DNA of 64,000 nt from Oscillospiraceae bacterium (GTDB lineage: Bacteria > Bacillota > Clostridia > Oscillospirales > Ruminococcaceae). Below the pieces are notes generated by a model. The model made no database searches. It saw only the letters and a program-made list of their open reading frames with translations, and had not been told where the DNA came from. The position numbers and the translations under genes are program-made. How positions within the stretch are numbered: the first letter of the stretch is position 1; the number at the start of each line of letters is the position of its first letter. Below, piece after piece: positions 27,341 through 64,000 of the stretch. The stretch covers positions 70,367-134,366 of the forward strand of contig CAADVD010000016.1 in assembly GCA_900752435.1 (NCBI GenBank), read 5' to 3'.

Positions 27341-28540
27341 TTAGTAGTTTAAAATATGACCCATTTTTGCTTGTTTTGTTTTTAAATAGAACAAATCCTC
27401 TGTTGTTGCGTCCATTTGAATGGGAACACGTTCCGTAATTTCCATACCAAAATCCGAAAGCTGATAAACTTTATCGGGATTGTTGGTGAGAAGACGCAGG
27501 GTTTTCGCCCCCAAATCGCGCAAAATTTGTGCTCCGATGTAATATTCACGCTCATCACCGGCAAAGCCGAGTGCCAGATTGGCCTCCAAGGTATCCATCC
27601 CCTGCTCCTGAAGCTCATAAGCGCGCAATTTGTTGATGAGGCCAATGCCGCGTCCCTCCTGGCGCATATAAAGCAGGATACCACGGCCTTCCCTCTCAAT
27701 CTGAGTCATGGCCGCCGCAAACTGCTGGCCGCAGTCACAGCGTAAGGACCCGAACGTATCACCGGTCAGACATTCGGAATGCACTCTGCACAGCAAATTC
27801 TCGCCATTCCCGATTTCTCCCTTTACCAAAGCCACATGATGTTCGCCGTTGAGCCGGTTGACATAGCCATAAGCCATAAAGTTCCCATATTTAGTAGGCA
27901 TCTTTGTCACCGTCACACGATCCACCAGTTTTTCATGCCGCTTGCGGTAGGCCTGCAAAGCTTGAATGGTGATGAATTTTAACTTCCATTTTTGAGCCAG
28001 TTCCATCAGCTCCGGAGTCCGCATCATCGTGCCGTCCTCCCGCATGATTTCACAGCACAGTCCGCATTCCTTCAGTCCTGCCAAACGCATCAAATCCACT
28101 GTGGCTTCGGTGTGGCCGTTTCGCTCCAGTACGCCGTTTCTCTTCGCCAACAGCGGAAACATATGCCCCGGACGGCGGAAATCCTCCGGCTTGACGCCGT
28201 CTTCCACGCACTTCATAGCGGTGACGGAACGTTCTGCGGCAGAAATCCCAGTCGTGGTGCTGATATGGTCGATGGAAAACGTAAAGGCAGTTTCGTGATT
28301 ATCCGTATTTTGCGTCACCATTTGAGGAATTTGCAGTTTGCGCACATATTCCTCCGACATGGGCATACAGATAAGCCCTTTCCCATGCGTTGCCATGAAG
28401 TTGATGTTTTCCGTCGTAGCAAACTGCGCGGCGCAGATAAAATCGCCCTCATTTTCCCGTTCCGGATCATCCGTGACCAGCACAACTTTCCCCTGCCGCA
28501 GATCGTCCAATGCTTCTTCAATTGTGTTGAATGTAACCAT
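27341..28540 (-). CDS. ribBA: bifunctional 3,4-dihydroxy-2-butanone-4-phosphate synthase / GTP cyclohydrolase II
   Basis: N-terminal DHBP synthase and C-terminal GCHII with a CxxGxxxxSxRCDC zinc motif. Confidence 0.95.
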
Positions 28541-28559
28541 TCTCCAGCTCCTCTCTTCG

Positions 28560-29207
28560 TCAATAACCGTATTTGGCCAAAAATTCTCGTGTCAATCCGC
28601 CGTTCGGTTGGGAGACAGCTTTGGGACACAGAAATTTTTCAACATACTTTCCAACAATGTCCGTTTCCAGATTGACGGCATCTCCAATCCGCCGTTCTTT
28701 TAAGGTCGTTTCGCGGACGGTATGCGGAATGGCGGAAATCGAAAAATACGCCGTTTCCACCTTTGCCACCGTTAAACTGATGCCGTCAATCGCAATCGAG
28801 CCTTTCTCGACAATGTATTTCATCACCGATTCCGCCGCCTGGACGGTGTACCAAACGGCATTGTCGTCCTGCTCAATCCGCATAATCTTTCCCATGCCAT
28901 CTACATGGCCGGCCACAATATGACCACCAAAACGTCCGTCAACCGGCATGGCACGCTCCAAATTCACACGACTGCCGGTTTGAAGCAGCGCAAGAGCGGA
29001 ACGGTTCAACGTTTCGTGCATGACATCCGCCGAAAAGCCCTGCTTATGAAACGAAGTGACGGTCAGGCACACCCCATTGACCGCTACACTGTCGCCAATC
29101 TTCAAATCATCCAAAATCTTCTGCGCCTGGATGTGCAGAACGGCGGAATGCGAACCATTCTGAATGCGTTCAATCTTTCCAACTTCCTCAATGATTCCCG
29201 TAAACAT
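28560..29207 (-). CDS. ribE: riboflavin synthase alpha subunit
   Basis: [10 protein letters not shown] duplicated lumazine-binding repeats. Confidence 0.9.
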
Positions 29208-30294
29208 CTCCGCACACCTCGCTCTCAATCAAAAAATCTTCTCCCAACGGCAAAATCGTACTATTTTTCAAACGCACCGCATCCGCTGGTTCGGCAAAAC
29301 CCAGTCCGCTGACCGGTGATTTCGCAGTCCGCCCCCCGAATAATTTCGGCGCAACATACGCCTGCACTTTCTGTACAATGCCGCTTTCAAGCGCCGCCCA
29401 GTTGAGTTCCGCACCGCCCTCCAGCAGAATGCTGTCAATGCCAATCGAACCAATCTGTTTCATCAGCTCCTGCAAATCAACACGACCGTTTCGTTTCGGC
29501 AGAGTAAAAACACGGCACCCCGCATTTTGATAGGCCAACTGCCTCTCCTCATCGGTACAGCAAGTGGCCAGTATCGTGGGAACCTCCTTGGCTGTCTGCA
29601 CCAACTGAGCGGAAAGCGGCGTCCGAAGCTGTGTGTCACAAACGATGCGAACCGGGTTCTTACCGCCCTCAATGCGGCAGGTCAACAGTGGATCATCGGC
29701 CAACACCGTTCCGATTCCCACCATAATGGCACTGTATCGGTGCCGCTGCTGATGAACATGCTTCCGAGCCGTTTCCCCCGTAATCCATTGGGAAGCACCA
29801 GTATACGTCGCCATTTTCCCATCCATCGTCATCGCGTATTTCAGCACCACATAAGGGCGCTTAGTCCGAATAAAATGGAAGAACACCTCGTTGAGCTTCC
29901 TGCATTCTTCAGCCAAAACCTGTTCCGTGACGGCTACGCCATGCCGGCGGAGAATCTCAATCCCCTTACCCGAAACCAAGGGATTCGGGTCGCCGGAGCC
30001 AATCACCACACGGGCAATTTTCGCCTCCAAAACCGCTTCCACACAGGGCGGCTGTTTGCCGTGGTGACAGCATGGCTCCAACGTGACATACATCGTCGCA
30101 CCGGCAGGTGATTCCGTACAGGCGGCCAAAGCGTTTCGCTCGGCATGGAGTTCCCCGTATTTTGCATGATACCCCTGCCCAATGATGCGCCCGTTTTTCA
30201 CAATCACCGCTCCTACCATGGGATTGGGCGATACCCAGCCACAGCCCTTTTGGGCAAGCTGTATGGCAAGATTCATGTACTCTGGGTCGCTCAT
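29188..30294 (-). CDS. ribD: bifunctional diaminohydroxyphosphoribosylaminopyrimidine deaminase / 5-amino-6-(5-phosphoribosylamino)uracil reductase
   Basis: CMP/dCMP deaminase zinc motif (HAE...PCxxC) plus a RibD C-terminal reductase domain. Start at the ATG after GGAGGGG. Confidence 0.9.
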   Translation of the reverse strand: MSDPEYMNLAIQLAQKGCGWVSPNPMVGAVIVKNGRIIGQGYHAKYGELHAERNALAACTESPAGATMYVTLEPCCHHGKQPPCVEAVLEAKIARVVIGSGDPNPLVSGKGIEILRRHGVAVTEQVLAEECRKLNEVFFHFIRTKRPYVVLKYAMTMDGKMATYTGASQWITGETARKHVHQQRHRYSAIMVGIGTVLADDPLLTCRIEGGKNPVRIVCDTQLRTPLSAQLVQTAKEVPTILATCCTDEERQLAYQNAGCRVFTLPKRNGRVDLQELMKQIGSIGIDSILLEGGAELNWAALESGIVQKVQAYVAPKLFGGRTAKSPVSGLGFAEPADAVRLKNSTILPLGEDFLIESEVCGDVYGNH

Positions 30295-30310
30295 TTTGTT
30301 CCCCTCCAAA

Positions 30311-30346
30311 AGCAAAAAATGTCTTGAACGAAATCGTTCAAGACAT
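30311..30346 (-). terminator. riboswitch expression-platform terminator (attenuator)
   Basis: GTCTTGAACGATTTCGTTCAAGAC hairpin followed by TTTTTTGC, immediately before the ribD SD. Confidence 0.6.
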
Positions 30347-30575
30347 TGATAAAAGGAACGCCAATACGGCTTTGCTCAAAACACAAAATGGCTCTGAAAT
30401 GATACACATTCCAGAGCCATGATACGCAAACAAATCCATGCAATCCTGCATTCCATCATCTTCTTTCATCCAGACTGTACTGTCGGCTTCGGAGTTTCAC
30501 CGAATCATACCTTGCGGTTCGTGGGCTATACCACCGGTAGGGAATTCCACCCTGCCCTGAAGATTTCGATTCAAT
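30323..30575 (-). ncRNA. FMN riboswitch (RFN element) leader of the rib operon
   Basis: The minus strand contains conserved blocks ...CAGGGCAGGGTGGAATTCCCTACCGG...GGTGAAACTCCGAAGCCGACAGTACAGTCTGGATGAAAGAAGATG..., matching the RFN consensus (GGTGAAATTCC / GCCGACAGT / AGTCTGGATG / GAGAAG). Confidence 0.85.
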
Positions 30576-53824: not shown

Positions 53825-54355
53825 TTATGCTTTCTTCAATTGCTGAACAAACTCTACAATCGGTTCAATCAACGCTTGATCTGAAATATCATACGAATGG
53901 CTGATCATGTTCAGCATTTGCTCTTCCTGCGGCGTCCGATTGGGCTTTTTCTCCAAAGAAGTGCACAGCATTTTCATCATTGTTTTGGAGACAAATCCCA
54001 TCTTTTCATAATTCAGTCCGCCCTGCAAATAGAAGCTCTTCACTGCACTTTCCGGCGGAACATTCTTTTCCATAGCTGTGTTTACATCCGGACTGGCCAT
54101 CGGCGATGCGCCCACTGCAAACACTGCGTAGTGCTTCTGCGGATGCTTCTTCTGCATCTCCCAAAGCCAGTTGAGCTTTAAAATGCGCCCTGCATGACAC
54201 CAGCTTCCAAAAATAAGTACGTCATACGCATTGACGTCCACTCGTCCGCGCTCCTCATAGCGGACACAGTCGCAGTTGAGTGCCTGCGCTAACCACTCTG
54301 CATACCGCTTGGTAAAACCCGTCTTTGAATAATACACAATTAATGTCTTCATCAA
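53825..54355 (-). CDS. flavodoxin-domain protein (cytoplasmic)
   Basis: MKTLIVYYSKTGFTKRYAEW flavodoxin phosphate-binding-loop-like N-terminus. Confidence 0.7.
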   Translation of the reverse strand: MMKTLIVYYSKTGFTKRYAEWLAQALNCDCVRYEERGRVDVNAYDVLIFGSWCHAGRILKLNWLWEMQKKHPQKHYAVFAVGASPMASPDVNTAMEKNVPPESAVKSFYLQGGLNYEKMGFVSKTMMKMLCTSLEKKPNRTPQEEQMLNMISHSYDISDQALIEPIVEFVQQLKKA

Positions 54356-54391
54356 AATAATCCACCTTTCCTCGGAACAGCTAACATGCTG

Positions 54392-54862
54392 TTATTCCTG
54401 CCTATTTTCCATGTTTTTTTCCAGTGTCATCAGTACGCGCAAGGTGCTTTTCAGCTCATCCGGCTGAGTTCCTGCAAACAACTGCTTGATAAATTCCGTC
54501 TCTTTTTCGTGATACGCAGATGCCAATTCTGCGCATTTGTCTGTTTTTGCTACCCGGCTTTTTCGGCGGTCACGTGCGTCTGTATACAGTTGTACATAAC
54601 CTTTCTGCTGCAGCTTCAATACAAGCTGTTTGACGTTTTGATGTGAACTGCCGACTGCATCGGACAGTTCATTCAGCGTGGGGTGCTCCTCCCCAAACAG
54701 CTCCAATGTCACGAGCACAAACCACTGTTTCGCGGTAATTTCTTGGTAAAACCGATCGCCGATTACCTGCAGTCGATTGCTGACGGCAAAAATCATTCCG
54801 AACAGCAAATAGGAATCTGGATACGGCGGAAGTGTTGGCAACATAGAAAAACATCCTTTCAT
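54392..54862 (-). CDS. MarR-family transcriptional regulator
   Basis: Winged-helix MarR core (LNELSDAVGSSHQNVKQLVLKLQQKGYV). Confidence 0.8.
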   Translation of the reverse strand: MKGCFSMLPTLPPYPDSYLLFGMIFAVSNRLQVIGDRFYQEITAKQWFVLVTLELFGEEHPTLNELSDAVGSSHQNVKQLVLKLQQKGYVQLYTDARDRRKSRVAKTDKCAELASAYHEKETEFIKQLFAGTQPDELKSTLRVLMTLEKNMENRQE

Positions 54863-55743
54863 TATTGTTTCTTTCCACAGACATAAGAAATGCGATCAAC
54901 GTTCCCATCAAAATAAATGAAATCGCCCTCTTCATAATTCCATACTGCCTGAAATACCGTCGGATGAAGAATTCCATCCGAATTTTCTCGATATTCACCG
55001 CAAACCGCTGACCACGGCACTTGTTCCACTGTGCCGTCCGATGCAATATTCCTGCGGTCCTCCGTGGTGAACAGCACCATCTCCCAATTGTCATTGAACG
55101 TAAACACGCCGCTGGCGGTCAAATCTTTATAAGAAATGGTCGCCTGAATGTGATATTCATCCAGTTCCTCTAAGGTTATATAATCCTGCAATAAGGAAGT
55201 CGGTGCAAACAAGCACTCGGCTAAAAAAGTCGCCAAACAGGCTCTATCCATCTCCTCACCGGTTTGATGAAACAGACAGATCAGTTTTCCGATAACCCCT
55301 TTCATTCCGCCTTTCCCATTTAAAAAATAGTCATACCCTTCAAACGGAATACCATACAATCCACTGTCTATCAGTGCCAAACGGCTTGGCTGTGCAATAA
55401 AATTATACTGCGTATAATCAATGGTCAGCGCTGGGCCATTCTTGCTCTGCATAAAATCCACGTCGTGATACTCCATCTTCATGTACGTCATTTTTGGCGT
55501 TCCGATATAACCGCAATGTTCCAAATAGCGTTGAATCGCCATTGGAAAGTTCGCAAACTCTTCTTTCTGAAACACTCCATTTACATCCAAATCGTTGCTT
55601 GTTTCCGCTAAACTTTTCACATCTCGATGAAATTCCCGTTTCAGCGGCGAATCATTGACATTGAAGAAAATAATAACCGCTCCAACCAGCAGCAAAACAG
55701 CTCCAATCCACAGCATTCTTTTCCTCGCTTTCTTCATTGGCAT
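54862..55743 (-). CDS. hypothetical N-terminally membrane-anchored protein
   Basis: N-terminal transmembrane helix, then a ~260-aa domain of unknown function. Stop overlaps the MarR start. Confidence 0.55.
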   Translation of the reverse strand: MPMKKARKRMLWIGAVLLLVGAVIIFFNVNDSPLKREFHRDVKSLAETSNDLDVNGVFQKEEFANFPMAIQRYLEHCGYIGTPKMTYMKMEYHDVDFMQSKNGPALTIDYTQYNFIAQPSRLALIDSGLYGIPFEGYDYFLNGKGGMKGVIGKLICLFHQTGEEMDRACLATFLAECLFAPTSLLQDYITLEELDEYHIQATISYKDLTASGVFTFNDNWEMVLFTTEDRRNIASDGTVEQVPWSAVCGEYRENSDGILHPTVFQAVWNYEEGDFIYFDGNVDRISYVCGKKQ

Positions 55744-55950
55744 TCTCTCCTCTGAATAAATGTAACTTATTACCTTTTATATTATGTAGTATATTACATT
55801 TTAATTCATCTGTCAAGTACAAGCACATGCTGCATCATGTTGAATTTTTGGTGAACTTAAATTAAACTATCTAATTTTTGTAATATATAACAAAATACCA
55901 GTTTGTATATACGATATGTTTTGCCCTATACCACGCAAATAACCTTTTGA

Positions 55951-55989
55951 GGGTAAAAAGAAATCCCGACCTTGAACAACGATCGGGAT
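55951..55989 (-). terminator. rho-independent terminator downstream of apbE
   Basis: ATCCCGA...TCGGGAT hairpin followed by TTCTTTTTACC on the minus strand. Confidence 0.5.
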
Positions 55990-56032: not shown

Positions 56033-57070
56033 TCATCTCGTTATCACATAAATCTCCATATCGGAAAAATCCTTATTCAGAATGAAATCATCTTTAATTC
56101 CTTCTGTCAGATAAATTTCTTTTTCATCCGTTATCAGCAACATTTCAAAATTGCCGTTTTCCTGCCAGTATTCTGTTGCTCCATTAAGCCCCATTACATA
56201 AATAGCCGTAGACAGGGCATCGCACAACTTGCCTTCTTTTGCCATGATGGAAACAGAGGCTAAACCGCTTTCTGCCGGATAGCCGGTGGAAGGGTCAATA
56301 ATATGCCCGTATTGCTTTCCATCCTCACCTACAAAATATCTCTCATAATTCCCGGACGTCACCACAGCACTGTCCTCGCTCTCCAAAATACCCAAGCTGC
56401 CTTCTCCAAACGGGTTCTGTATGCCAAGCCGCCACCTGCTGCCATCTGGTTTTCTGCCGACCATCTGAATATTTCCGCCTATATCCAACAGAGCCGAAGT
56501 AACTCCCTGCTCTTTCAGTAATTCTGCTATGATGTCGCCTGTATATCCTTTTCCCACCGCGCCGAGATCCAACTGCATTCCATCTGGCAGGGTTACAAAG
56601 TTTTCTTCTAAAAGCACTTTTTCATAGTCTACGTTTTTCAATAGGCCTGTCAGTTCATCCGCAGCAGGTATTTGATATTCTCCGCTGATAAAGCCCCATG
56701 CAGTCACAACTGGGAAAATGGTCGGATCAAGTGCTCCATTTGTCCGATGCGCCATATCCAGTGCAAATTGTAAAATTTCTGCTGTTTCTTCGTGAATCTC
56801 GGTTGGTATACCGCCGTTTTGGTTCACTGTATAAATATCGCTGTTTTCATCCGTAACCGACCATAGGGATTCCAGTTCTTTAATTCTATCCTCGGAAAGC
56901 GTAAGCGCTTCCTCTGCTGACTCTCCATAGGCAGTCAGTGTCATATAGGTACCCATTGCAAACACTCCGACTGTGTGTTCTTCCTCTGGTTTGCTCTGTA
57001 CGCTGCACCCGGAAAGCAACAGCGCAAATAAGAGCAGAAGGGAAATGAATTTATTGCTTTTTCTCCACAA
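56033..57070 (-). CDS. apbE: FAD:protein FMN transferase ApbE, lipoprotein
   Basis: ApbE-family sequence throughout. Start at an in-frame TTG 7 nt after GGAAGGAGG, giving the lipobox LLSGCS. The ORF-track ATG extension has no signal peptide. Confidence 0.85.
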   Translation of the reverse strand: MWRKSNKFISLLLLFALLLSGCSVQSKPEEEHTVGVFAMGTYMTLTAYGESAEEALTLSEDRIKELESLWSVTDENSDIYTVNQNGGIPTEIHEETAEILQFALDMAHRTNGALDPTIFPVVTAWGFISGEYQIPAADELTGLLKNVDYEKVLLEENFVTLPDGMQLDLGAVGKGYTGDIIAELLKEQGVTSALLDIGGNIQMVGRKPDGSRWRLGIQNPFGEGSLGILESEDSAVVTSGNYERYFVGEDGKQYGHIIDPSTGYPAESGLASVSIMAKEGKLCDALSTAIYVMGLNGATEYWQENGNFEMLLITDEKEIYLTEGIKDDFILNKDFSDMEIYVITR

Positions 57071-57245
57071 GTTTTTTCCTCCTTCCGGCCAGCTTTTGAA
57101 TCCCCTTGGAAGTATAATGTGCCAGAAAAACCAACAGGCCCATGATGGCAATATACTCCGTAAAAAAGAGCAGGACAGGCCTTTCAAAATCAAAGAAAAC
57201 AAAGGAGGATGTCAAAAACATATAGGACAAAAATTGATTTTTCAC
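57051..57245 (-). CDS. possible 64-aa two-helix membrane peptide overlapping the apbE start
   Basis: ORF-track entry; hydrophobic. No clear SD. Speculative. Confidence 0.2.
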   Translation of the reverse strand: MKNQFLSYMFLTSSFVFFDFERPVLLFFTEYIAIMGLLVFLAHYTSKGIQKLAGRRKKLVEKKQ

Positions 57246-57260
57246 GAAAGCATAAAGGCC

Positions 57261-57752
57261 TTACCCGGCCACCAAGGCCGCAGCTATGCGCAGAAGGATT
57301 CGCAACGGTTTAGAAGCAACCGGCCCGGTGGCTTTACGCACCATGCCGAGAATCATATTCCAGTGTAGGCCGAGATGCAGGGCCATCAGCACAAATCCCC
57401 AAAATGCGGAAAGCACATGCAACGGCCTTGCCAGAGCGATACCGCCGGAAATCGGCAGGAAAGCGAAAACCTCTCTGGAAAGAATCATTCCGCTTACCAT
57501 TAAACCGAACATGGAGAGCAGTACAGCGAAATTTGTCACTGTCTGCAAAATGCGTATAGGCGTATATTTTCCTTTGAAAAGATGGCTATACCAGCTCCGG
57601 TTGAGAATATGATGGGCAATCCATAAAATAAGCATACCCGCTCCGAGCCATTCATGAGCGGAATCTCCGGTGAGCTGCCGCGCCATGAGGAACAGCAATA
57701 AGACCGTCATGATCAGATCCATGACGATTTTGCATATCCATTTTTTCTTCAT
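57261..57752 (-). CDS. 4-TM His-rich membrane protein (DUF4405-like, from memory)
   Basis: Four predicted transmembrane helices with conserved His (HEWLG, HHILN, HVLSAFW, HLGLHW). Start at MKKKW after GGGAGGAA. Confidence 0.55.
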   Translation of the reverse strand: MKKKWICKIVMDLIMTVLLLFLMARQLTGDSAHEWLGAGMLILWIAHHILNRSWYSHLFKGKYTPIRILQTVTNFAVLLSMFGLMVSGMILSREVFAFLPISGGIALARPLHVLSAFWGFVLMALHLGLHWNMILGMVRKATGPVASKPLRILLRIAAALVAG

Positions 57753-57823
57753 CAGAAACATTCCTCCCATTTGCAGATAAGAGCCTGCCTGTCAAACCAC
57801 GGGCAGGCCCTTACTTGTTATCA

Positions 57824-58582
57824 TTACTCGGCGGCCAAATTAAGACCATTCACCCAATCCACAACATCACTCTCTGCTCCTGATACACTGTTTCGGGAAA
57901 TAGAAAGACCGTCGGAAATAACGGTTGCGTTCGGCTGCAATTCCGAGATCGTCTGAATGGTTCTGGAAAATCCGCTTCCACCGTGAGTGGTAAATGGAAT
58001 AATGGTTTTGCCGCTGAAATCATATTCTTCAAGAAATGTATAGAGCGGCATCGGCAAGTCGGCATTCCAGTTCGGGTAGCCCAAGAAAATCACGTCATAG
58101 CTGTCGAGGTTTTCAATCTGTGTCGCAAGCTCTGGTCTGGCATTGTCGGCTTTTTCATTGTAGGCAAATTCCAAGAGGGGATCGTGCGTGGTCGGATATT
58201 CCTGCACCGTTTCAATGGCAAACAGATCGCCGCCCGTTTCGCGCTGAATCATTTGTGCAATGTACTCGTTATTTCCCAAGACCTCTCCGTTTACTGCTAC
58301 GCGACTTGCACCGGCTACGGTGTCCACGCCGTCCGTTTCCATGACGGAAAAATATGCAATCAGAATATTGCTGTTACCCGCTTCCGCAGTTTTCGCGCTG
58401 TCTGTGATGCTTTCCATTCTTTCTCCCGGACTTTCCACACTGCTGTCACCGGATTCCATTGTCGGAGCTTTGGACTCCGTTCCTGCTGATGTATCCTCCA
58501 CAGTATTTTGATTGCTGTTGCCACAAGCAGCCAGAGAAAGAACCAGCAGAGCAGAAAGAAGTATGGCTGTTAATTTTTTCAT
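57824..58582 (-). CDS. flavodoxin-like lipoprotein carrying a flavinylation-like DTVAGAS insertion in place of the FMN phosphate-binding loop
   Basis: Lipobox LSLAACG, and YFS followed by VMETDGVDTVAGASRVAVNGEVLG where paralogs have the YTGNT loop. The rest aligns with the flavodoxin lipoproteins at 59682 and 62031. Confidence 0.7.
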   Translation of the reverse strand: MKKLTAILLSALLVLSLAACGNSNQNTVEDTSAGTESKAPTMESGDSSVESPGERMESITDSAKTAEAGNSNILIAYFSVMETDGVDTVAGASRVAVNGEVLGNNEYIAQMIQRETGGDLFAIETVQEYPTTHDPLLEFAYNEKADNARPELATQIENLDSYDVIFLGYPNWNADLPMPLYTFLEEYDFSGKTIIPFTTHGGSGFSRTIQTISELQPNATVISDGLSISRNSVSGAESDVVDWVNGLNLAAE

Positions 58583-58621
58583 AGAATTTTGCTCCTTTAC
58601 TTTTTATTATCATGATCTATG

Positions 58622-59164
58622 TCAACAGATATTTTTACCCATCTGGTATGCTTCCTGCATTGCAGGATTTCTTTGAATATCGCCAAGCTGCCAAGCTCCA
58701 GCGCCATAGATAACGCCCATCTCTTTTGCTCCCGGCAGGCATTCGATGTAACCGCGCAGCCCGTCAACTGTCCGTTCCATAGCCGCCTTTTCATCGGCGG
58801 CAGTAGCGATCAGATAAAACTCTTTGTTTTCCAGACCGGCTTTCTGCGCTCCGCCCAAAGTACGGTCGATTATGGTTTTCATCTGCGCACACATGGTGTA
58901 GAAGTATACAGGAGTAGCCAAAACGATCACATCCGCATCCCGCATTTTCGCAATGACCGATTCCATATCATCCTGCTTCACACAATGTCCTAGCTTTTTA
59001 CAGGCATAGCAGGCGGAACAATAGTCAATGATGAGTTCCGCAAGCCGGATTTTATTCACCCGATTGCCCACTTCTTCCGCGCCTTTCATAAACTGATCGC
59101 AAAGCGTGTCTGAATTGCCGCTCTTACGGGGGCTGGACGAAATAATCAAAACATTTTTACTCAT
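58622..59164 (-). CDS. iron-sulfur flavoprotein / NAD(P)H-dependent FMN reductase family (cytoplasmic)
   Basis: Flavodoxin-like fold (LIISSSPRKSGNS) plus CxxCxxCx5C (CSACYACKKLGHC). Confidence 0.75.
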   Translation of the reverse strand: MSKNVLIISSSPRKSGNSDTLCDQFMKGAEEVGNRVNKIRLAELIIDYCSACYACKKLGHCVKQDDMESVIAKMRDADVIVLATPVYFYTMCAQMKTIIDRTLGGAQKAGLENKEFYLIATAADEKAAMERTVDGLRGYIECLPGAKEMGVIYGAGAWQLGDIQRNPAMQEAYQMGKNIC

Positions 59165-59669
59165 TTGCAGTCTGAACTCCTTCCTCATTCACTAATTCCA
59201 ATCGTACCGTTCCTGATTCATTTGCCATTGTTTCGGCTCCTGTTTCCGCATGGCCCAACGGAATTACCTCTACAATGGTCTGTTCATAAATATCATCGTA
59301 GAAAATCGCGAGGTCTGGCCCGGCGTTCCAGTAGCCAAAATCTCCAATCTCGTATTCCCTTGTTGTGGCTTCTACAGAGGAAAGGCGTTCCGGCAGCGTC
59401 ATGCCTTTTGCAAAACTGTTCCTTTCAATCAATGTCATTTCCAGCGGCAGCATTGTCACCAGATCGGCAGCAGCCCTCGAATCGTTTAATGTAATAACTA
59501 CCTCTGTATTTTCGGTAATCATTTTGATTTGAGTGCCTTCTACACTCTCATAGCTGCTATTTTCAGATACATCGAGCTCCCCTGTATCCTGCTGTCTGGC
59601 TACTCCACAGGCCGCCAGAGAACAAAGCATAAGGAAAAGCAGTCCGACGCTAAGTGCTTTTTTGAACAT
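59157..59669 (-). CDS. cyclophilin-like-fold lipoprotein
   Basis: Lipobox SLAACG, with ...ITLNDSRAAADLVTMLPLEMTLIERNSFAKG...GDFGYWNAGPDLAIFYDD... resembling the cyclophilin-like family commonly paired with flavodoxins (from memory). Confidence 0.55.
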   Translation of the reverse strand: MFKKALSVGLLFLMLCSLAACGVARQQDTGELDVSENSSYESVEGTQIKMITENTEVVITLNDSRAAADLVTMLPLEMTLIERNSFAKGMTLPERLSSVEATTREYEIGDFGYWNAGPDLAIFYDDIYEQTIVEVIPLGHAETGAETMANESGTVRLELVNEEGVQTANE

Positions 59670-59681
59670 AGGCTTTCTCCT

Positions 59682-60326
59682 TTATTCCATAAGTCCAAGC
59701 CCCTGAATCCACGGATCAATATCATTCAGATCATTTGCGGTAAGTCCTTCTGCAATCTCCGCATCCGGGCAAAGCTCACTGAAAATATGCAGGCTGTTGC
59801 CAATGTCGTCGCTGGAGCTTGTGCAGAAGGGGATGATCGTCTTACCCGAAAAATCATTCTCTGCAAGGAAAGTCGCTATCATGGCCGGAGCCTCATCCCA
59901 CCAGATCGGATAACCTACAAAAATCGTGTCGTATCCCTCAATACTATCCACGGACACAGTAATCTCCGGGTGTATGCCATCCAAAATTTCTGCCTCGGCT
60001 TCCTCCTGCAAATCTCCATATTCTTCTGTACGCTGAATCTCAGCCAAAGTGCCGCCAGTGTATTCCGCAATCATCTGCGCTACTTCTTCCGTGTTTCCTG
60101 TATAGGAAAAATATGCAATCAAAACATTTCCACCATTCGCTCCTGTCTCTGCGGTTTCCGGTTCTGTTGTTTCAGGTTCTTCTGTTTGCAGCGCCTCCGA
60201 TACAGTCTCGGTTTCGTCAGCCACAGAAGATGTTTCTGCAGAAGGGTTATTGTTACCGCAAGCTGCCAATACAAAGCTGAGAACCAACATTAAAGTAAGA
60301 AGTAAAATACTTTTTCTGATTTTCAT
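59682..60326 (-). CDS. flavodoxin-like lipoprotein (extracytoplasmic)
   Basis: Lipobox LAACG, acidic linker, YFSYTGNTE FMN loop and GYPIWW motif. Confidence 0.7.
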   Translation of the reverse strand: MKIRKSILLLTLMLVLSFVLAACGNNNPSAETSSVADETETVSEALQTEEPETTEPETAETGANGGNVLIAYFSYTGNTEEVAQMIAEYTGGTLAEIQRTEEYGDLQEEAEAEILDGIHPEITVSVDSIEGYDTIFVGYPIWWDEAPAMIATFLAENDFSGKTIIPFCTSSSDDIGNSLHIFSELCPDAEIAEGLTANDLNDIDPWIQGLGLME

Positions 60327-60348
60327 TGTGTACCATCCTTTCTCAAAA

Positions 60349-61296
60349 TCATTCTTTGTGTGTATTCAAATATTCCAAAATCCAGTCGATTGCCTGTCTG
60401 GCATCCTCACCCGAAAAGCCATGTCCGGCTCCCGGAAGCACTTCCAGCCGGGCAGAATCATAAGTCTCCACTGCTTTTTCCGAATAGGAGAGAGGAACAA
60501 TACTGTCGGCATCTCCATGAATCATAAGAACGTCCTTGTCATAAGCTGAAATTGCCTCATAAATATCATAATCCAACAAATTTTCTGCATAGGCGCGCCC
60601 TACTGTCATCCACATCAAATAATAAGTATCTGGAATGTCCTCCACGTTCTCAAACTGTTCTTTTGCGCGATCCACCAGCACAAAGGCCGGATACAAAAGA
60701 ATGGCACCTTTGATTTCTTCTTTGTTCGCAGCAGCGGTAATAGCCGATACTGCGCCACCCTGACTTGTTCCCATTAAGAACATATTTTCTTCGTCCACAA
60801 AAGGCTGCTCCTGTATCATGTGGATTACCGCTTCTAAATCTGCCTGCTCAGTGAAAATGGACATATCCAAAGTGGAGCCGTCGCTCCGGCTTCCCGGACT
60901 TCCTCCGCAAAAATCAAAGCAATAGACTACATATCCTTTCCCGGCAAAAGCTTCCGCAAATTGCGTTCCAACCTGATAATTACCTCCAAATCCATGAGAA
61001 AAGATAACCGCTGGCATTTTCTCTCCTGCGTTCTTCGGAACGTAGAGCAGTCCATAGATTTGGTTTTCATCCCGCCTTGCATAAAGCTCCTGTGTTTCAT
61101 ATTCGTAAACAGGCGTTTCCAATGTTGGAGTGTCATCAGTAGTCGATGCAGGCGCTGTCTCCGTCTTTTCTTCGCTTGCAGTATCACCAGCCTGCATTTC
61201 TGATGATGCGGAAGCCTCATGATTAACAGCACATCCGCTTAATATCAACAGTGGGAGCATAAGCATACAGAGTATAAGATAGATGCTTTTTCTCAT
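60349..61296 (-). CDS. alpha/beta-hydrolase lipoprotein
   Basis: Lipobox ILSGCA, nucleophile elbow GTSQGG, and a C-terminal His/Asp. Confidence 0.7.
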   Translation of the reverse strand: MRKSIYLILCMLMLPLLILSGCAVNHEASASSEMQAGDTASEEKTETAPASTTDDTPTLETPVYEYETQELYARRDENQIYGLLYVPKNAGEKMPAVIFSHGFGGNYQVGTQFAEAFAGKGYVVYCFDFCGGSPGSRSDGSTLDMSIFTEQADLEAVIHMIQEQPFVDEENMFLMGTSQGGAVSAITAAANKEEIKGAILLYPAFVLVDRAKEQFENVEDIPDTYYLMWMTVGRAYAENLLDYDIYEAISAYDKDVLMIHGDADSIVPLSYSEKAVETYDSARLEVLPGAGHGFSGEDARQAIDWILEYLNTHKE

Positions 61297-61308
61297 TTCC
61301 GCCTCCTG

Positions 61309-62019
61309 CTATTTGCTGCTCACCGTATATACCAACCGGATTCCATCACCTTTCAGTCGCTCTATATTCTTGAGCTGAAAGACTGCCGGATCACTTGGTG
61401 GAAGCATGGCTGATTTTTCAAACACCGTTACGGAATCCGGATTTCCATCCGCAGCCGGAGCAAGCAAAAGGCTTAGTTCATCCACTGCACCCTGCTGTAA
61501 AAATGTCCAGTTAATTGTGCCTCCGCCGCAGATCAACAACGTGCCAATGCCAAATAACCGGTACAACTTCTCCGCAACGATTTTGCTATCCAGCATTTCC
61601 GATCCGGCTAAAATATAGGACACTCCACGTTTACGAAGATAAGCTCGGTAAGCTGGTGCTGTACGCTCTGTCAATACTTCGATCACATGGGCGTCTGGCC
61701 TTCCAGCTTTTCGGAATATACCGGACTCCCATCCAATTTCTCCCTGTGTGTCTACAGAGACATAGTAAAGTGCCGCATCATTTTCCGCCACAAAGTCCCC
61801 GTCAGGAACCTCTGTCACAGAATCAAGCTCCGGCTTACGCCTCTGTGTAAATTCTTTCGTTGTTACCGTTCCATAAAGCCATGCATCCGCCTGATACTCT
61901 GAACGAATACGAGCATATTCCTCACTTACGGTCTGCGCCGTTTTGGTTCCCATGAACGCGCCTGTAATTTTCCCATCCAGCGCACTCAAGATGTGACAGA
62001 TCGTATATGGTCGCTCCAT
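61309..62019 (-). CDS. RibD C-terminal domain / dihydrofolate-reductase-like family protein
   Basis: ...ILSALDGKITG...GGGTINWTFLQQGAVDELSLLLAP... is typical of the RibD_C/DHFR-like reductases. Confidence 0.75.
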   Translation of the reverse strand: MERPYTICHILSALDGKITGAFMGTKTAQTVSEEYARIRSEYQADAWLYGTVTTKEFTQRRKPELDSVTEVPDGDFVAENDAALYYVSVDTQGEIGWESGIFRKAGRPDAHVIEVLTERTAPAYRAYLRKRGVSYILAGSEMLDSKIVAEKLYRLFGIGTLLICGGGTINWTFLQQGAVDELSLLLAPAADGNPDSVTVFEKSAMLPPSDPAVFQLKNIERLKGDGIRLVYTVSSK

Positions 62020-62030
62020 AATAACCTCCT

Positions 62031-63242
62031 TTATTCTACAAATCCATTCTCTGTCAGATAAGCAAGGATACCCTCCGTATCAGATGCCTCTGTAAACAGA
62101 CCATCATGGACATTCGCTCCCGCAGCGCTTTCCCGCACAAATCCCATAGAATTTTCAAACTGTTCTGTATCCATGGATGCGGACTGCGTGAAAGGATAAA
62201 CCTCAACACCGGAAAGATCGTAGTTTTCTAAAAATGTTCCGATAATCATCGGAGCCGTATGCCACCAGATGGGATAGCCCACGAAGACTGTATCATATTC
62301 TGAAATGGAATCCGGCAGATTGGCTATTTCCGGTCGGGCATTTTCGTCACGTTCTACCAACGCAACATCTCCACATTCTTCATAGTCTGTCGGATAGGGA
62401 ATCAGAGGTTCAAGCTCCAGCAGGTCGCCGCCAATCTGCTCCTGAATGTAGGTTGCCATTTTCTCCGTGTTTCCAGAGGTAGACCATGAGAAATATACAA
62501 TCAAAGTTTTTCCATTCTCACCAGATACCCCTGTTGCCTCTTTACCTTCCTCGCTTACAGTCGTTTCAGGTTTCGAAGGTTCAGCCTGAGTTTCATCACT
62601 GGGCTGCGCAGCATTCCCAGTCAACCCTAATTCTGAAAGCCATCCATCAATCTGGCTTGTTCCACTGATCCGTCTTTCCCCATATACTGCTAAGCCGTCA
62701 CAGGAATTAAGGAATGTTGGCATTGTTTCGTCAATGTCACTTCCGCCGCTGGTGCAGAACGGAATAATAAGTTTTCCTGTCAGATCATAGCTTTCCAAAA
62801 ACGTGTTGATGGGGGCCGGTGTTGCGTGCCACCATACCGGATAGCCCACAAACACAATGTCATATTCCTCCATGTTTTCCACTGTATCCGTCAAAGCTGG
62901 CCGTTCATTTCCCCTGATTTCACGATTGGATTCCATATATACATTGGAATAGCCATCCTGCGGGGTTATCTCAAACAAGTCGCCGCCAGTTTTTTCGCTG
63001 ATTGCATTTGCAATGTTTTTTGTTGTCCCGGAATAGGAAAAATAAGCAACCAGCACTTTTATGTCGGATTGAGAAAGGATTTCCTCCCTCACTTCCTCAA
63101 CCTGCGAATCATTCAAAGAATTGTCCGTCAAACTTCTGAACATTGCAGGGTAACGGTAAATGTTGTACCCTACGAAAGCGAGGGCAAGAATAACGATCAC
63201 TGCGATTACCGCAATGAAACCTTTTTTACGCTTCATTGTCAT
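62031..63242 (-). CDS. membrane-anchored tandem (double) flavodoxin-like protein
   Basis: N-terminal transmembrane anchor, then two flavodoxin modules (YFSYSGTTK...GYPVWW and YFSWSTSGNTEK...GYPIWW) joined by an acidic linker. Confidence 0.7.
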   Translation of the reverse strand: MTMKRKKGFIAVIAVIVILALAFVGYNIYRYPAMFRSLTDNSLNDSQVEEVREEILSQSDIKVLVAYFSYSGTTKNIANAISEKTGGDLFEITPQDGYSNVYMESNREIRGNERPALTDTVENMEEYDIVFVGYPVWWHATPAPINTFLESYDLTGKLIIPFCTSGGSDIDETMPTFLNSCDGLAVYGERRISGTSQIDGWLSELGLTGNAAQPSDETQAEPSKPETTVSEEGKEATGVSGENGKTLIVYFSWSTSGNTEKMATYIQEQIGGDLLELEPLIPYPTDYEECGDVALVERDENARPEIANLPDSISEYDTVFVGYPIWWHTAPMIIGTFLENYDLSGVEVYPFTQSASMDTEQFENSMGFVRESAAGANVHDGLFTEASDTEGILAYLTENGFVE

Positions 63243-63248
63243 CTCTCC

Positions 63249-64000
63249 TTACATACATTCCATCAGAATCTGATAAATTTCCTCCCGGTCAAGTTCGCGG
63301 GGATTGCACTTAATGATATTGCAGGTATCAGCCACCTGCCGCAGTACCTCCGGCGTAATTTCCACCGTGGATTTGAGCTGACTCATTTTGGTAGGAAGCC
63401 CGCACTCTTTGATAAAGTTTTCCAGAGCGTCTACACCAGCTTCGGCAGTATCTACATCGAAAACAACCTTTGCCAATCGAGTAAATTTGTCCGGCGCATC
63501 CTTTACGATGTGGCGGTAATAGGCGGGATGGATCACCGCAAGCCCCTGCCCGTGGTTACAATCTGTATAAGCGCCCAACTGATGCTCAATCTGATGTGCC
63601 TGAAAATCAGTCAAGCGGCCACATTTCAAAATCCCGTTTTCCGCCATGGCAGAGTCCCACATCAAATTGCTCCGAGCCTGCCTATCATTGATATTTTCCA
63701 GCAGACGGCGCATATTGACCACAGTGTTGCGCATGATTGCCAGCGCCACATCATCTGACACATTATCTTCATCGGAGGTTCCGAGATAGGTTTCCATCGC
63801 ATGGCTCAGCGTATCAAAAGCGCCGGAGAGCACCTGCATGGGCGGCACCGACATGGTATAAGCCGGATCAAGAACAGCAAAGGAGGCTGCGGTTCCAAAA
63901 ACTGGCCCTTTCCACTTTTTCTCCTCATAAGTAATCACCGCACCAGCGTTCATTTCCGCGCCGGTGCCGGAAGCCGTCACAACCGCACCCATCGGAATCC
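63249..64000 (-). CDS. iron-containing alcohol dehydrogenase, C-terminal part (gene runs past window end)
   Basis: Fe-ADH signature region ...GxxH...H... (AYTDCNHGQGLAVIHPAY). The N-terminus is outside the window. Confidence 0.8.
   Translation of the reverse strand, partial: IPMGAVVTASGTGAEMNAGAVITYEEKKWKGPVFGTAASFAVLDPAYTMSVPPMQVLSGAFDTLSHAMETYLGTSDEDNVSDDVALAIMRNTVVNMRRLLENINDRQARSNLMWDSAMAENGILKCGRLTDFQAHQIEHQLGAYTDCNHGQGLAVIHPAYYRHIVKDAPDKFTRLAKVVFDVDTAEAGVDALENFIKECGLPTKMSQLKSTVEITPEVLRQVADTCNIIKCNPRELDREEIYQILMECM

Follow-up and report, generated by a model that had tools for sequence, protein, structure and literature searches.

A predicted ApbE/DUF4405/flavinylated-flavodoxin module at the 3′ end of a MerR-type operon in an Oscillospiraceae bacterium, with a nonsense codon in its cytochrome gene

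According to a 2024 mSystems study by Huang, Meheust, Barquera and Light, Flavodoxin_4 proteins with a beta1-alpha1 insertion bearing an [S/T]GA[S/T]-like motif co-localise with apbE, mainly in Firmicutes (PMC11334425). In the same study, flavinylation of two such proteins in E. coli is reported to require ApbE and the Ser/Thr, DUF4405 proteins are described as frequent neighbours of apbE and flavinylated Flavodoxin_4, and one Oscillospiraceae DUF4405 protein, modelled with six helices and four central histidines, is shown to bind haem b (PMC11334425). DUF4405 is described there as resembling MsrQ and PepSY-like proteins, with low overall sequence homology (PMC11334425); it had been predicted as a cytochrome b family in 2015 (PMC5898192). 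Here we analyse a gene cluster at positions 56033–63242, on the minus strand, of a 64,000-nt stretch of DNA from an Oscillospiraceae bacterium (the whole stretch is called the window below). Judged by profile matches and motifs, its last three genes, g7, g8 and g9, are an apbE/DUF4405/flavinylated-Flavodoxin_4 module of the type reported, with some experimental tests, in 2024. When the full text of the available literature was searched for ApbE, DUF4405 and flavinylation together, that study was the only work returned. The original prediction, a note made from the sequence alone, held that the cluster could not be placed in any described system, which PMC11334425 contradicts, and it credited the link between DUF4405 and ApbE to papers of 2018 and 2021; we found the link in the 2024 paper.

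Domains were called with Pfam and NCBIfam profiles. Export was judged from lipobox sequence rules and from conservation of the lipobox Cys in tblastn alignments to 80 g7-related loci, which were obtained by scanning GTDB species representatives and onto which the operon proteins were mapped. The module and its boundaries consist of the following features.

57824–58582, minus strand: g7, Flavodoxin_4 lipoprotein with a flavinylation insert (PF12682, E 5.7e-21; PRK06934, 235 bits; lipobox LAAC)
58304–58324, minus strand: codons of the DTVAGAS motif of g7 (residues 87–93), from the translation
57778–57815, minus strand: hairpin between g7 and the DUF4405 gene (minimum free energy (MFE) −26 kcal/mol, z −4.6)
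57261–57752, minus strand: g8 N-fragment, first 163 codons, DUF4405 (PF14358, E 2.6e-11)
57051–57260, minus strand: g8 C-fragment, last 69 codons of the DUF4405 frame, in the frame of the N-fragment
56033–57070, minus strand: g9, lipoprotein ApbE, 345 aa, TTG start (Pfam ApbE, E 1e-83; lipobox LSGC)
55954–55989, minus strand: intrinsic terminator past the ApbE gene (9-bp stem, 9-nt loop, then UUUCUUUUU)

The match of g7 to PRK06934 lies over the 172-bit cut-off of that model. In an AlphaFold (AF2) model of the protein, strand beta1 (residues 73–78) and helix alpha1 (104–116) are separated by an insert at 79–103. The closest folds of this model are the Flavodoxin_4 crystal structures 4ICI, 4J8P and 3KLB, and HMMER alignments to 4ICI and 3KLB skip residues 84–105, leaving the insert without a counterpart there. 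The insert holds the DTVAGAS motif, of which D87, A92 and S93, together with the following R94, are invariant across 18 aligned homologues. The flavinylation-type insert that had been proposed for this lipoprotein was thus recovered, and Ser93 is the predicted site of flavin mononucleotide (FMN) attachment, making g7 a predicted ApbE substrate. The lipobox LAAC of g7 is retained in 68/80 orthologue alignments and apbE lies two genes downstream; by sequence rules the protein is predicted to be extracytosolic, and its gene co-localised with apbE. The g7 family comprises more than 7,500 homologues, many of them 80–88% identical and coming from Frisingicoccus, Roseburia, Eubacteriales and [Clostridium] innocuum. 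Among GTDB representatives, the nearest to g7 belong to a Frisingicoccus sp. (88%) and to a metagenome-assembled genome named 'uncultured Peptococcaceae' (92%, partial).

The frame of g8 has 233 codons and is interrupted by an in-frame TAA at 57261–57263, which separates 163 from 69 codons; the interrupted gene spans 57051–57770 and its true stop overlaps the ApbE start. The PF14358 domain with its four conserved central histidines is present. A single polypeptide with six transmembrane segments was not found, as the TAA after codon 163 leaves four helices in the N-fragment and two in the C-fragment. Residues H33, H47, H112, H126 and H130 (numbered from MKKKW) are 98–100% conserved in 40 orthologues and all precede the stop. 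The pairs H33/H47 and H112/H126 are each 14 residues apart, the spacing expected of putative paired haem ligands on two helices. The C-fragment is 41–90% identical to the C-terminal part of uninterrupted orthologues, shows no further damage, and keeps conserved residues that include Y167, F169, D188, P192 and F196 (no conserved His). A GTG lies five codons past the TAA, from which a split protein could conceivably be made.

Four independent assemblies, made from different samples (ENA, JGI and Logan), agree letter for letter on the TAA and on the 720 nt around it, which rules out a sequencing error. DUF4405 orthologues in about 45 other species are uninterrupted, 220–242 aa long, and usually read ...AGYGLYAF... 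at the position of the stop. Sister strains, whose cluster has 98% DNA identity and shares the downstream flank, carry TAT (Tyr) there. Because the TAA is common to the four assemblies, the other species are uninterrupted and the sister strains have TAT, the comparison identifies it as a lineage-specific nonsense mutation (TAT to TAA). Programmed recoding was judged unlikely, given the plain TAT of the sister strains, and we know of no TAA recoding in the host group. Haem binding may persist in the truncated product, or the gene may have lost its function. Since the mutation removes the last two helices, this strain probably has an impaired membrane electron conduit, or one that functions as a split protein. 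The original prediction of a His-rich membrane protein of DUF4405 type with four transmembrane segments stands for the histidines and the family; its four segments are those left of a cut six-helix gene. The present annotation as a '169-aa DUF4405 protein' should be flagged as an interrupted gene.

The g9 protein matches PF02424 with 281 bits over profile positions 1–265 of 266, and its best solved relative is 7ESA, 'FAD:protein FMN transferase' (FAD, flavin adenine dinucleotide; E 1.4e-57). It reaches 132.7 bits against the 498-bit cut-off of the E. coli-type ApbE equivalog. By these scores g9 is a member of the ApbE family and not an E. coli-type orthologue. Its TTG start at 57070 is preceded by GGAGG, and the 345-aa product is also what gene callers predicted independently on other contigs. 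The signal read from this start is MWRKSNKFISLLLLFALLLSGC, the sister strain has an identical signal peptide, and the LSGC lipobox marks g9 as a predicted exported lipoprotein. Both the lipoprotein assignment and the TTG start of the original prediction are borne out, and the gene should be annotated as starting at TTG 57070.

The terminator that had been placed after ApbE is present as a hairpin with a U-tract (MFE −21.9 kcal/mol, z −3.4); the consensus terminator scanner is limited to 8-nt loops and therefore missed its 9-nt loop. The hairpin at the g7-DUF4405 junction is GC-rich and recurs in many related loci with differing stems, some of them with a U-tract. It is possibly a leaky terminator, which may keep expression of the cytochrome and ApbE lower, or an mRNA-stability element, and this pattern of recurrence suggests lower read-through into DUF4405 and apbE. 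The loci with a junction hairpin are L009, L011, L014, L015, L017, L019, L021, L022, L025, L026, L032, L034, L035, L037, L038 and L048–L050; in L025 it is present though no DUF4405 follows. Beyond the terminator lies a separate unit (53825–55743, minus strand) that encodes a membrane-anchored DUF6544/DUF6920 protein, a MarR-family regulator and a Flavodoxin_5 protein, with a strong promoter-like site, TTGACA-17-TATACT, at 55816–55788. These three genes were rejected as members of the system: they lie past the terminator behind their own promoter-like site and are absent from all 80 related loci.

Compared with the clusters in the available parts of PMC11334425, the window shares the Flavodoxin_4 insert and motif, a DUF4405 protein with conserved histidines, ApbE and a host among the Firmicutes/Clostridia. 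It differs in that DUF4405 is cut after helix 4 and the cluster contains no flavin-exporter gene; moreover, the module here forms the end of a MerR-type operon with exported non-flavinylated flavodoxins and with esterase-like and cyclophilin-like lipoproteins. Those parts of the paper make no mention of cyclophilin-like proteins and give no physiological role. With the MsrQ/MsrP and PepSY-like (FoxB) systems the locus has in common a small membrane protein, here predicted to bind haem b, that has paired histidines on two of its helices and would deliver electrons to an extracytoplasmic partner. Here, however, there is neither an MsrP-type molybdoenzyme nor a PepSY domain, and the predicted partner is a covalently flavinylated flavodoxin. 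In Listeria monocytogenes, as reportedly found by Light et al. in 2018, the ApbE-type lipoprotein FmnB flavinylates a surface lipoprotein that is fed from the membrane. The logic of this extracellular electron transfer is the same, with an ApbE lipoprotein and a surface lipoprotein receiving membrane electrons in a Gram-positive cell. Listeria PplA uses FMN_bind domains whereas the fold here is that of flavodoxin, and electrons in Listeria pass through Ndh2, a dedicated quinone and EetA/B. The genes here follow a MerR-type promoter. No Ndh2, EetA/B, PplA, FMN_bind or quinone-biosynthesis gene appears among the Pfam matches precomputed for the 10 kb that flank g7 on each side, and the PplA model matches the cluster at the level of a signal peptide only (16 bits against a cut-off of 325).

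The region 56033–63242 contains nine open reading frames in the same direction, where eight co-directional minus-strand genes had been counted; the direction was right and the number was not. Neighbouring genes are 6–53 nt apart or overlap, and the only terminator is the one past ApbE. Upstream of the module the operon consists of the following genes.

63249–64000, minus strand: Fe-dependent alcohol dehydrogenase (Fe-ADH), 3′ part, cut by the window end (open reading frame; YqhD-type best match)
62031–63242, minus strand: g1, two Flavodoxin_4 domains with an N-terminal hydrophobic anchor (Pfam E 4.8e-66, two stretches)
61309–62019, minus strand: g2, RibD_C/DHFR-like reductase, no signal peptide, cytoplasmic (Pfam RibD_C 2e-12, 47.8 bits)
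60349–61296, minus strand: g3, alpha/beta-hydrolase lipoprotein (Pfam Hydrolase_4/DLH and related families; lipobox LSGC)
59682–60326, minus strand: g4, Flavodoxin_4 lipoprotein (Pfam E 8.6e-28; lipobox LAAC)
59157–59669, minus strand: g5, Cyclophil_like2 (PF18050) lipoprotein (Pfam E 5e-24; lipobox LAAC)
58622–59164, minus strand: g6, cytoplasmic FMN_red protein with a four-Cys motif (Pfam E 2e-23)

The operon extends beyond the window end. An identical g7 protein was found on a 440-kb contig that contains the window, and the full order is a divergent MerR gene, then a second Cys-motif FMN_red gene, CMD, Fe-ADH and g1 to g9. The window cluster is the 3′ part of this longer MerR-type operon. 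The Fe-ADH gene, which had been noted upstream, is complete on the longer contig L001, where it encodes 381 aa with Fe-ADH Pfam matches and lies 6 nt from g1. From the tight spacing and the sole terminator past ApbE, the nine genes and the upstream part are predicted to be one operon. A distinct low-GC island, as implied by the "lower-GC block (about 47–50%)" of the original prediction, was ruled out: GC is 46.3% in the cluster, 49.4% in the whole window and equally 46–47% in the adjacent 16 kb. Every domain name that had been given to g1–g7 and g9 was upheld by the profile searches, and the lipoprotein calls for g3, g4, g5, g7 and g9 agree with their lipoboxes. In the large majority of the 80-locus alignments the residue aligned with the lipobox Cys is Cys, with lipobox-like residues before it.

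Two further exported proteins of the operon have the flavodoxin fold. The N-terminus of g1, MKRKKGFIAVIAVIVILALAFVG, is basic and then hydrophobic, in agreement with the anchored double flavodoxin originally proposed, and neither of its Flavodoxin_4 domains has a flavinylation insert; g1 is predicted to be membrane-anchored and to face outwards. The insert is also lacking in g4, whose lipobox is conserved among orthologues, and g4 is predicted to bind FMN non-covalently outside the cytoplasm. These putatively non-covalent flavodoxins sit on long, flexible acidic tethers of 40–50 residues. In P0008, P0076, L038 and L068, g4-like and g7-like domains are fused in one lipoprotein, and a 593-aa protein of L034 joins a g1-like part to a flavinylated g7-like domain. 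Because non-flavinylated and flavinylated Flavodoxin_4 domains are thus combined in single exported proteins, these fusions argue that g1 and g4 may work together with g7. A 387-aa 'flavodoxin' with Cyclophil_like2 and Flavodoxin_4 domains (P0059/L012, Roseburia sp.) was rejected as evidence of coupling. It is a chimeric reading frame and not a genuine fusion: with the FMN_red gene deleted, the cyclophilin-like coding sequence now runs, out of frame, into the stretch that precedes the flavodoxin.

The carriers of the 80 loci are gut Clostridia and include the cultured Clostridium methylpentosum DSM 5476, Blautia hominis KB1 and Clostridium sp. Marseille-P3244. The first of these (L017) possesses the gene set of the window's operon. 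Gene order in the cassette is fixed and its content is variable, as follows (optional genes in brackets; Fld4, Flavodoxin_4; Isf, iron-sulfur flavoprotein):

MerR< [FMN_red] [CMD] ADH [2xFld4] [RibD_C] [hydrolase] [Fld4] [cyclophilin-like] [Isf-like] FLAVINYLATED-Fld4 [DUF4405] [ApbE]

Counting the neighbours of the g7 orthologue only in loci with enough flanking sequence gave these frequencies.

DUF4405 directly 3′: 38/68 loci
ApbE in the locus: 13/57 loci
MerR upstream: 33/52 loci
ADH upstream: 33/52 loci
Fld4 upstream: 25/52 loci
Hydrolase upstream: 23/52 loci
Isf-like upstream: 15/52 loci
RibD_C upstream: 15/52 loci
CMD upstream: 14/52 loci
Cyclophilin-like upstream: 14/52 loci

Neighbourhood conservation, which the original prediction had named as a check, therefore holds for the cassette order and for DUF4405 and is limited for ApbE and for the variable content. 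As ApbE occurs in 13/57 loci and each accessory gene in 15–50%, the gene set of that prediction is not a fixed unit. Its wider proposal, an extracytoplasmic flavin-based electron-transfer module, agrees with the domains, the lipoboxes, the flavinylation-type insert and the conserved neighbourhood, as does its view that flavodoxin-fold lipoproteins stand in for the usual FMN_bind domains; ApbE would supply the flavin transferase and DUF4405 the membrane part. Genomes of Lachnospiraceae, Oscillospiraceae-type and Christensenellales lineages have cassette proteins of 75–93% identity; because this similarity crosses families without common flanking genes, it points to lateral spread of the cassette. 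The sister strains (L086–L089) lack g4 and the half comprising MerR, FMN_red, CMD, ADH and 2xFld4, and have DUF4405 intact. In one of them an IS110-family transposase gene lies just upstream of RibD_C at the breakpoint (L086 1767–2945).

Several genes not found in the window's operon occur in related loci. An EFR1-like gene, which encodes a fusion protein of about 255 aa with a flavodoxin-like domain and two [4Fe-4S] motifs, stands between MerR and CMD/ADH in 16 loci (including L007, L013, L029, L032, L045, L047, L049, L056, L063, L064 and L071). Other loci add Flavin_Reduct, CMD-cupin or another esterase lipoprotein, and aldo-keto reductase-like and SDR-like genes, the last two judged by sequence only. 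In four loci (e.g. L027 12721–13608) NusG_II and a Hpre_diP_synt_I-family membrane protein follow ApbE, a pair that is not in the window. FmnA, the flavin exporter of Listeria, belongs to the Hpre_diP_synt_I family; on that basis the membrane protein would match the transporter mentioned in PMC11334425.

The intergenic region between MerR and the operon in the window's genome contains TTGACC, a 19-nt spacer and TATAAT (L001 2523–2553). The arrangement TTGACC-N19-TATAAT with a dyad in the spacer is present in 40/42 regulator-carrying loci, often as the perfect repeat CCGGTTGT-w-ACAACCGG. MerR-activated promoters classically have a 19-nt spacer that carries a dyad operator, and MerR regulons of the NmlR/AdhR type respond to carbonyl and electrophile stress. 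The best named model for the regulator is NmlR (NF041849) with 69.5 bits; because this is far under the 175-bit equivalog cut-off, the regulator is, by profile score, NmlR-like and not an NmlR orthologue. The best NCBIfam model for the Fe-ADH, PRK15138 (YqhD-type), reaches 224 bits against a cut-off of 645. The locus shares with NmlR/AdhR-type regulons the short divergent MerR regulator, an operon led by dehydrogenase and reductase genes, and the spacer with its dyad operator. It departs from them in that its alcohol dehydrogenase is of the Fe type and not of the class III Zn type, and in its regulator under the NmlR cut-off. We found no NmlR/AdhR-type regulon with exported flavodoxins, DUF4405 or ApbE in the literature, and nothing relevant there on the function of the MerR/flavodoxin/cyclophilin-like/CMD combination or of exported flavodoxins.

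The accessory proteins are assigned at the level of families. The g2 protein matches RibD-type reductases in the PDB weakly. It was ruled out as the RibD of the riboflavin pathway: the housekeeping ribD, with a deaminase domain, lies at 29188–30315 (187 bits) in the rib operon behind an FMN riboswitch. This riboswitch (Rfam RF00050, 111 bits; 30454–30568, minus strand) precedes a riboflavin operon at 27341–30315 (minus strand) with ribD (deaminase and RibD_C), riboflavin synthase (Lum_binding) and ribBA. Since an operon of this kind is present behind its riboswitch, the organism is predicted to make its own flavin, with g2 as a separate RibD_C paralogue. Among solved structures, those closest to g3 include esterases for cinnamoyl, chlorogenic acid and ferulic acid substrates (E 1e-16 to 1e-23), and its match list also holds MHETase-like and dienelactone hydrolases. 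The lipoboxes of g3 (LSGC) and g5 (LAAC) are conserved in their orthologues; a PDB sequence search returned no solved relative of g5.

The g6 protein, for which gene callers take a 180-aa start, combines an FMN_red domain with CSACYACKKLGHC, a CxxCxxCx5C motif at residues 49–61. Iron-sulfur flavoproteins are defined by an FMN_red/flavodoxin-like fold and a compact CX2CX2CX4-7C motif. No solved Isf structure was among the matches of g6, which can be described as iron-sulfur-flavoprotein-like; the earlier assignment to this class agrees with the domain and the motif and has the standing of a prediction. Its best solved match is the flavone reductase (FLR) 7D38, over the N-terminal 100 residues only, the Cys motif included. 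The C-terminal tail of FLR, about 130 residues long, is involved in substrate binding and was reasoned to be maybe essential for the specific activity (PMC7862272). As only the generic N-terminal domain matches and this tail is missing, g6 was ruled out as a flavone reductase. A role of g6 as obligatory donor to DUF4405 was not supported either, the Isf-like gene occurring with and without DUF4405. The feeding of the module by cytoplasmic flavoproteins (FMN_red and RibD_C), put forward in the original prediction, has the standing of a hypothesis.

We consider it fairly probable that the ApbE/DUF4405/flavinylated-flavodoxin module belongs to an inducible operon that reduces electrophiles or oxidants, and not to a respiratory chain. 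The lipoprotein ApbE would attach FMN covalently to Ser93 in the g7 insert. DUF4405 would act as a haem b cytochrome whose paired histidines lie on helices 2 and 4, and would move electrons across the membrane, with the Isf-like FMN_red protein g6 as a candidate cytoplasmic donor. From the covalent FMN of g7 the electrons would hop to g4 and g1, whose Flavodoxin_4 domains are predicted to hold FMN non-covalently, and from there to an acceptor. The operon as a whole would serve inducible defence or xenobiotic processing, reducing electrophilic or oxidised compounds, perhaps phenolic quinones, at the surface and in the cytoplasm. In this scheme we infer the donor, the order of the flavin hops, the inducer and the acceptor. 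Defence is preferred to a respiratory outlet because of the MerR-type promoter, the accompanying enzymes, and the lack of Ndh2, EetA/B, PplA and quinone genes within 10 kb. The cytoplasmic enzymes are of detoxification type (YqhD-like ADH, CMD, two Cys-motif FMN reductases and the DHFR-like reductase), and the exported helpers are the cinnamoyl-esterase-like hydrolase and the cyclophilin-like protein. The EFR1-like, Flavin_Reduct, CMD-cupin and esterase-lipoprotein genes of related loci are in line with a detoxification theme. Two weak leads, the esterase likeness of g3 and the FLR likeness of g6, would point to phenolics.

Several points count against this reading. Its functional theme is drawn from family names, and its donor, acceptor and inducer are putative. 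ApbE is adjacent in just 13/57 loci, the accessory genes are each found in 15–50%, and the Isf-like gene, which occurs whether or not DUF4405 is present, stands ahead of the flavinylated flavodoxin gene in just 15 of the 52 loci whose upstream flank is long enough. The scores for NmlR and YqhD fall far short of the curated cut-offs (69.5/175 and 224/645 bits). DUF4405 is truncated in this strain, and together with the losses in the sister strains this suggests that the cassette may be dispensable. Finally, g7 and g8 were matched to the tested proteins SHO45324.1, WP_073032509.1 and MBD5117352.1 by class description and not by direct alignment.

Another explanation is that the cytochrome is a pseudogene and the rest of the cassette leftovers of a horizontally acquired operon, with no transmembrane transfer in this genome. 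The TAA replaces a codon that is Tyr in most of the roughly 45 species and in the sister strains, it is fixed in four independent samples, neither g4 nor the MerR-to-g1 half survives in the sister lineage, where an IS110 transposase gene adjoins the breakpoint, and the identity across families without shared flanks fits lateral transfer. Nevertheless all conserved histidines precede the stop, so that the four-helix fragment might have retained haem binding, the 69 codons past the stop are otherwise undamaged, the GTG after the stop makes a split protein conceivable, and the other eight genes are all intact; decay of this kind appears rather unlikely to us, if a serious contender. A pathway for dietary polyphenols, in which the esterase would free hydroxycinnamic acids from chlorogenate-type or feruloyl esters and the flavoproteins would reduce double bonds or quinone forms of phenolics and flavonoids, is more doubtful. 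The solved relatives of g3 named above, the match of g6 to the gut flavone ene-reductase FLR (PMC7862272), CMD and CMD-cupin genes that recall aromatic catabolism, and the gut Clostridia as carriers would all suit it. Yet the match of g6 covers the generic FMN_red part of FLR without its tail, the esterase fold is promiscuous (MHETase-like and dienelactone hydrolases match g3 as well), g3 is found in just 23/52 loci, and no phenolic-acid decarboxylase or known cinnamate reductase is present.

An energy-conserving extracellular electron transfer, that is, a Listeria-like respiratory outlet to iron, flavins, humics or organic acceptors such as the original prediction implied, seems improbable. 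It shares the logic of known ApbE-dependent systems (ApbE lipoprotein, membrane carrier, surface flavoprotein), several flavodoxin domains could relay electrons through the cell wall, and NusG_II and Hpre_diP_synt_I follow ApbE in four related loci. On the other hand, the 10 kb on either side hold no gene for an NADH dehydrogenase, quinone biosynthesis, EetA/B or PplA/FMN_bind, the promoter is of a stress-type MerR kind, the operon has many detoxification-type enzymes, and a patchy cassette that is truncated in natural strains fits an accessory role better than core energy metabolism. Very improbable, in our view, is a role in flavin scavenging or trafficking, with ApbE as trafficking enzyme and the flavodoxin lipoproteins binding or storing flavin for uptake. 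In the available part of PMC4767422, spirochaete ApbE homologues are flavin-trafficking proteins with FAD pyrophosphatase activity, and the cluster does encode several exported FMN-binding domains. This is opposed by the invariant attachment motif of g7, by the covalent flavinylation of g7 homologues in the available parts of PMC11334425, by a transmembrane cytochrome as the most constant neighbour, by the lack of a flavin uptake transporter in the cluster and by the riboflavin synthesis of the genome itself.

Within the preferred reading of an inducible reducing operon, a more specific proposal is speculative and of low probability: the module may be the output arm of a horizontally mobile, MerR-activated envelope-defence operon of gut Clostridia. 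On an electrophile or quinone signal, reducing power would flow through the haem b cytochrome to a tethered chain of surface flavodoxins, and this chain, with the exported esterase and the cyclophilin-like protein, would render phenolic quinones from the diet, or comparable oxidants, harmless while they are still outside the cell.

The 2024 study (PMC11334425) gave the parts of such a system, and in the literature found, of which that study was available in part, the role of flavinylated flavodoxins with DUF4405 is not established. What this analysis adds, on the evidence of gene content and profiles, is the context of an operon with a MerR promoter and an NmlR-like regulator, the recurrent partner genes, a cassette that is mosaic and mobile, domain fusions joining surface flavodoxins of the covalent and the non-covalent kind, and natural variants within one species. 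These variants are the cytochrome nonsense allele described here and the intact cytochrome with a truncated operon in the sister strains. The regulator and its conserved promoter provide a concrete regulatory handle, and the cultured carriers and natural variants make the function of exported flavodoxins approachable by experiment in abundant human-gut Clostridia. If the envelope-defence proposal is true, it would give extracytoplasmic flavodoxins their first physiological role.

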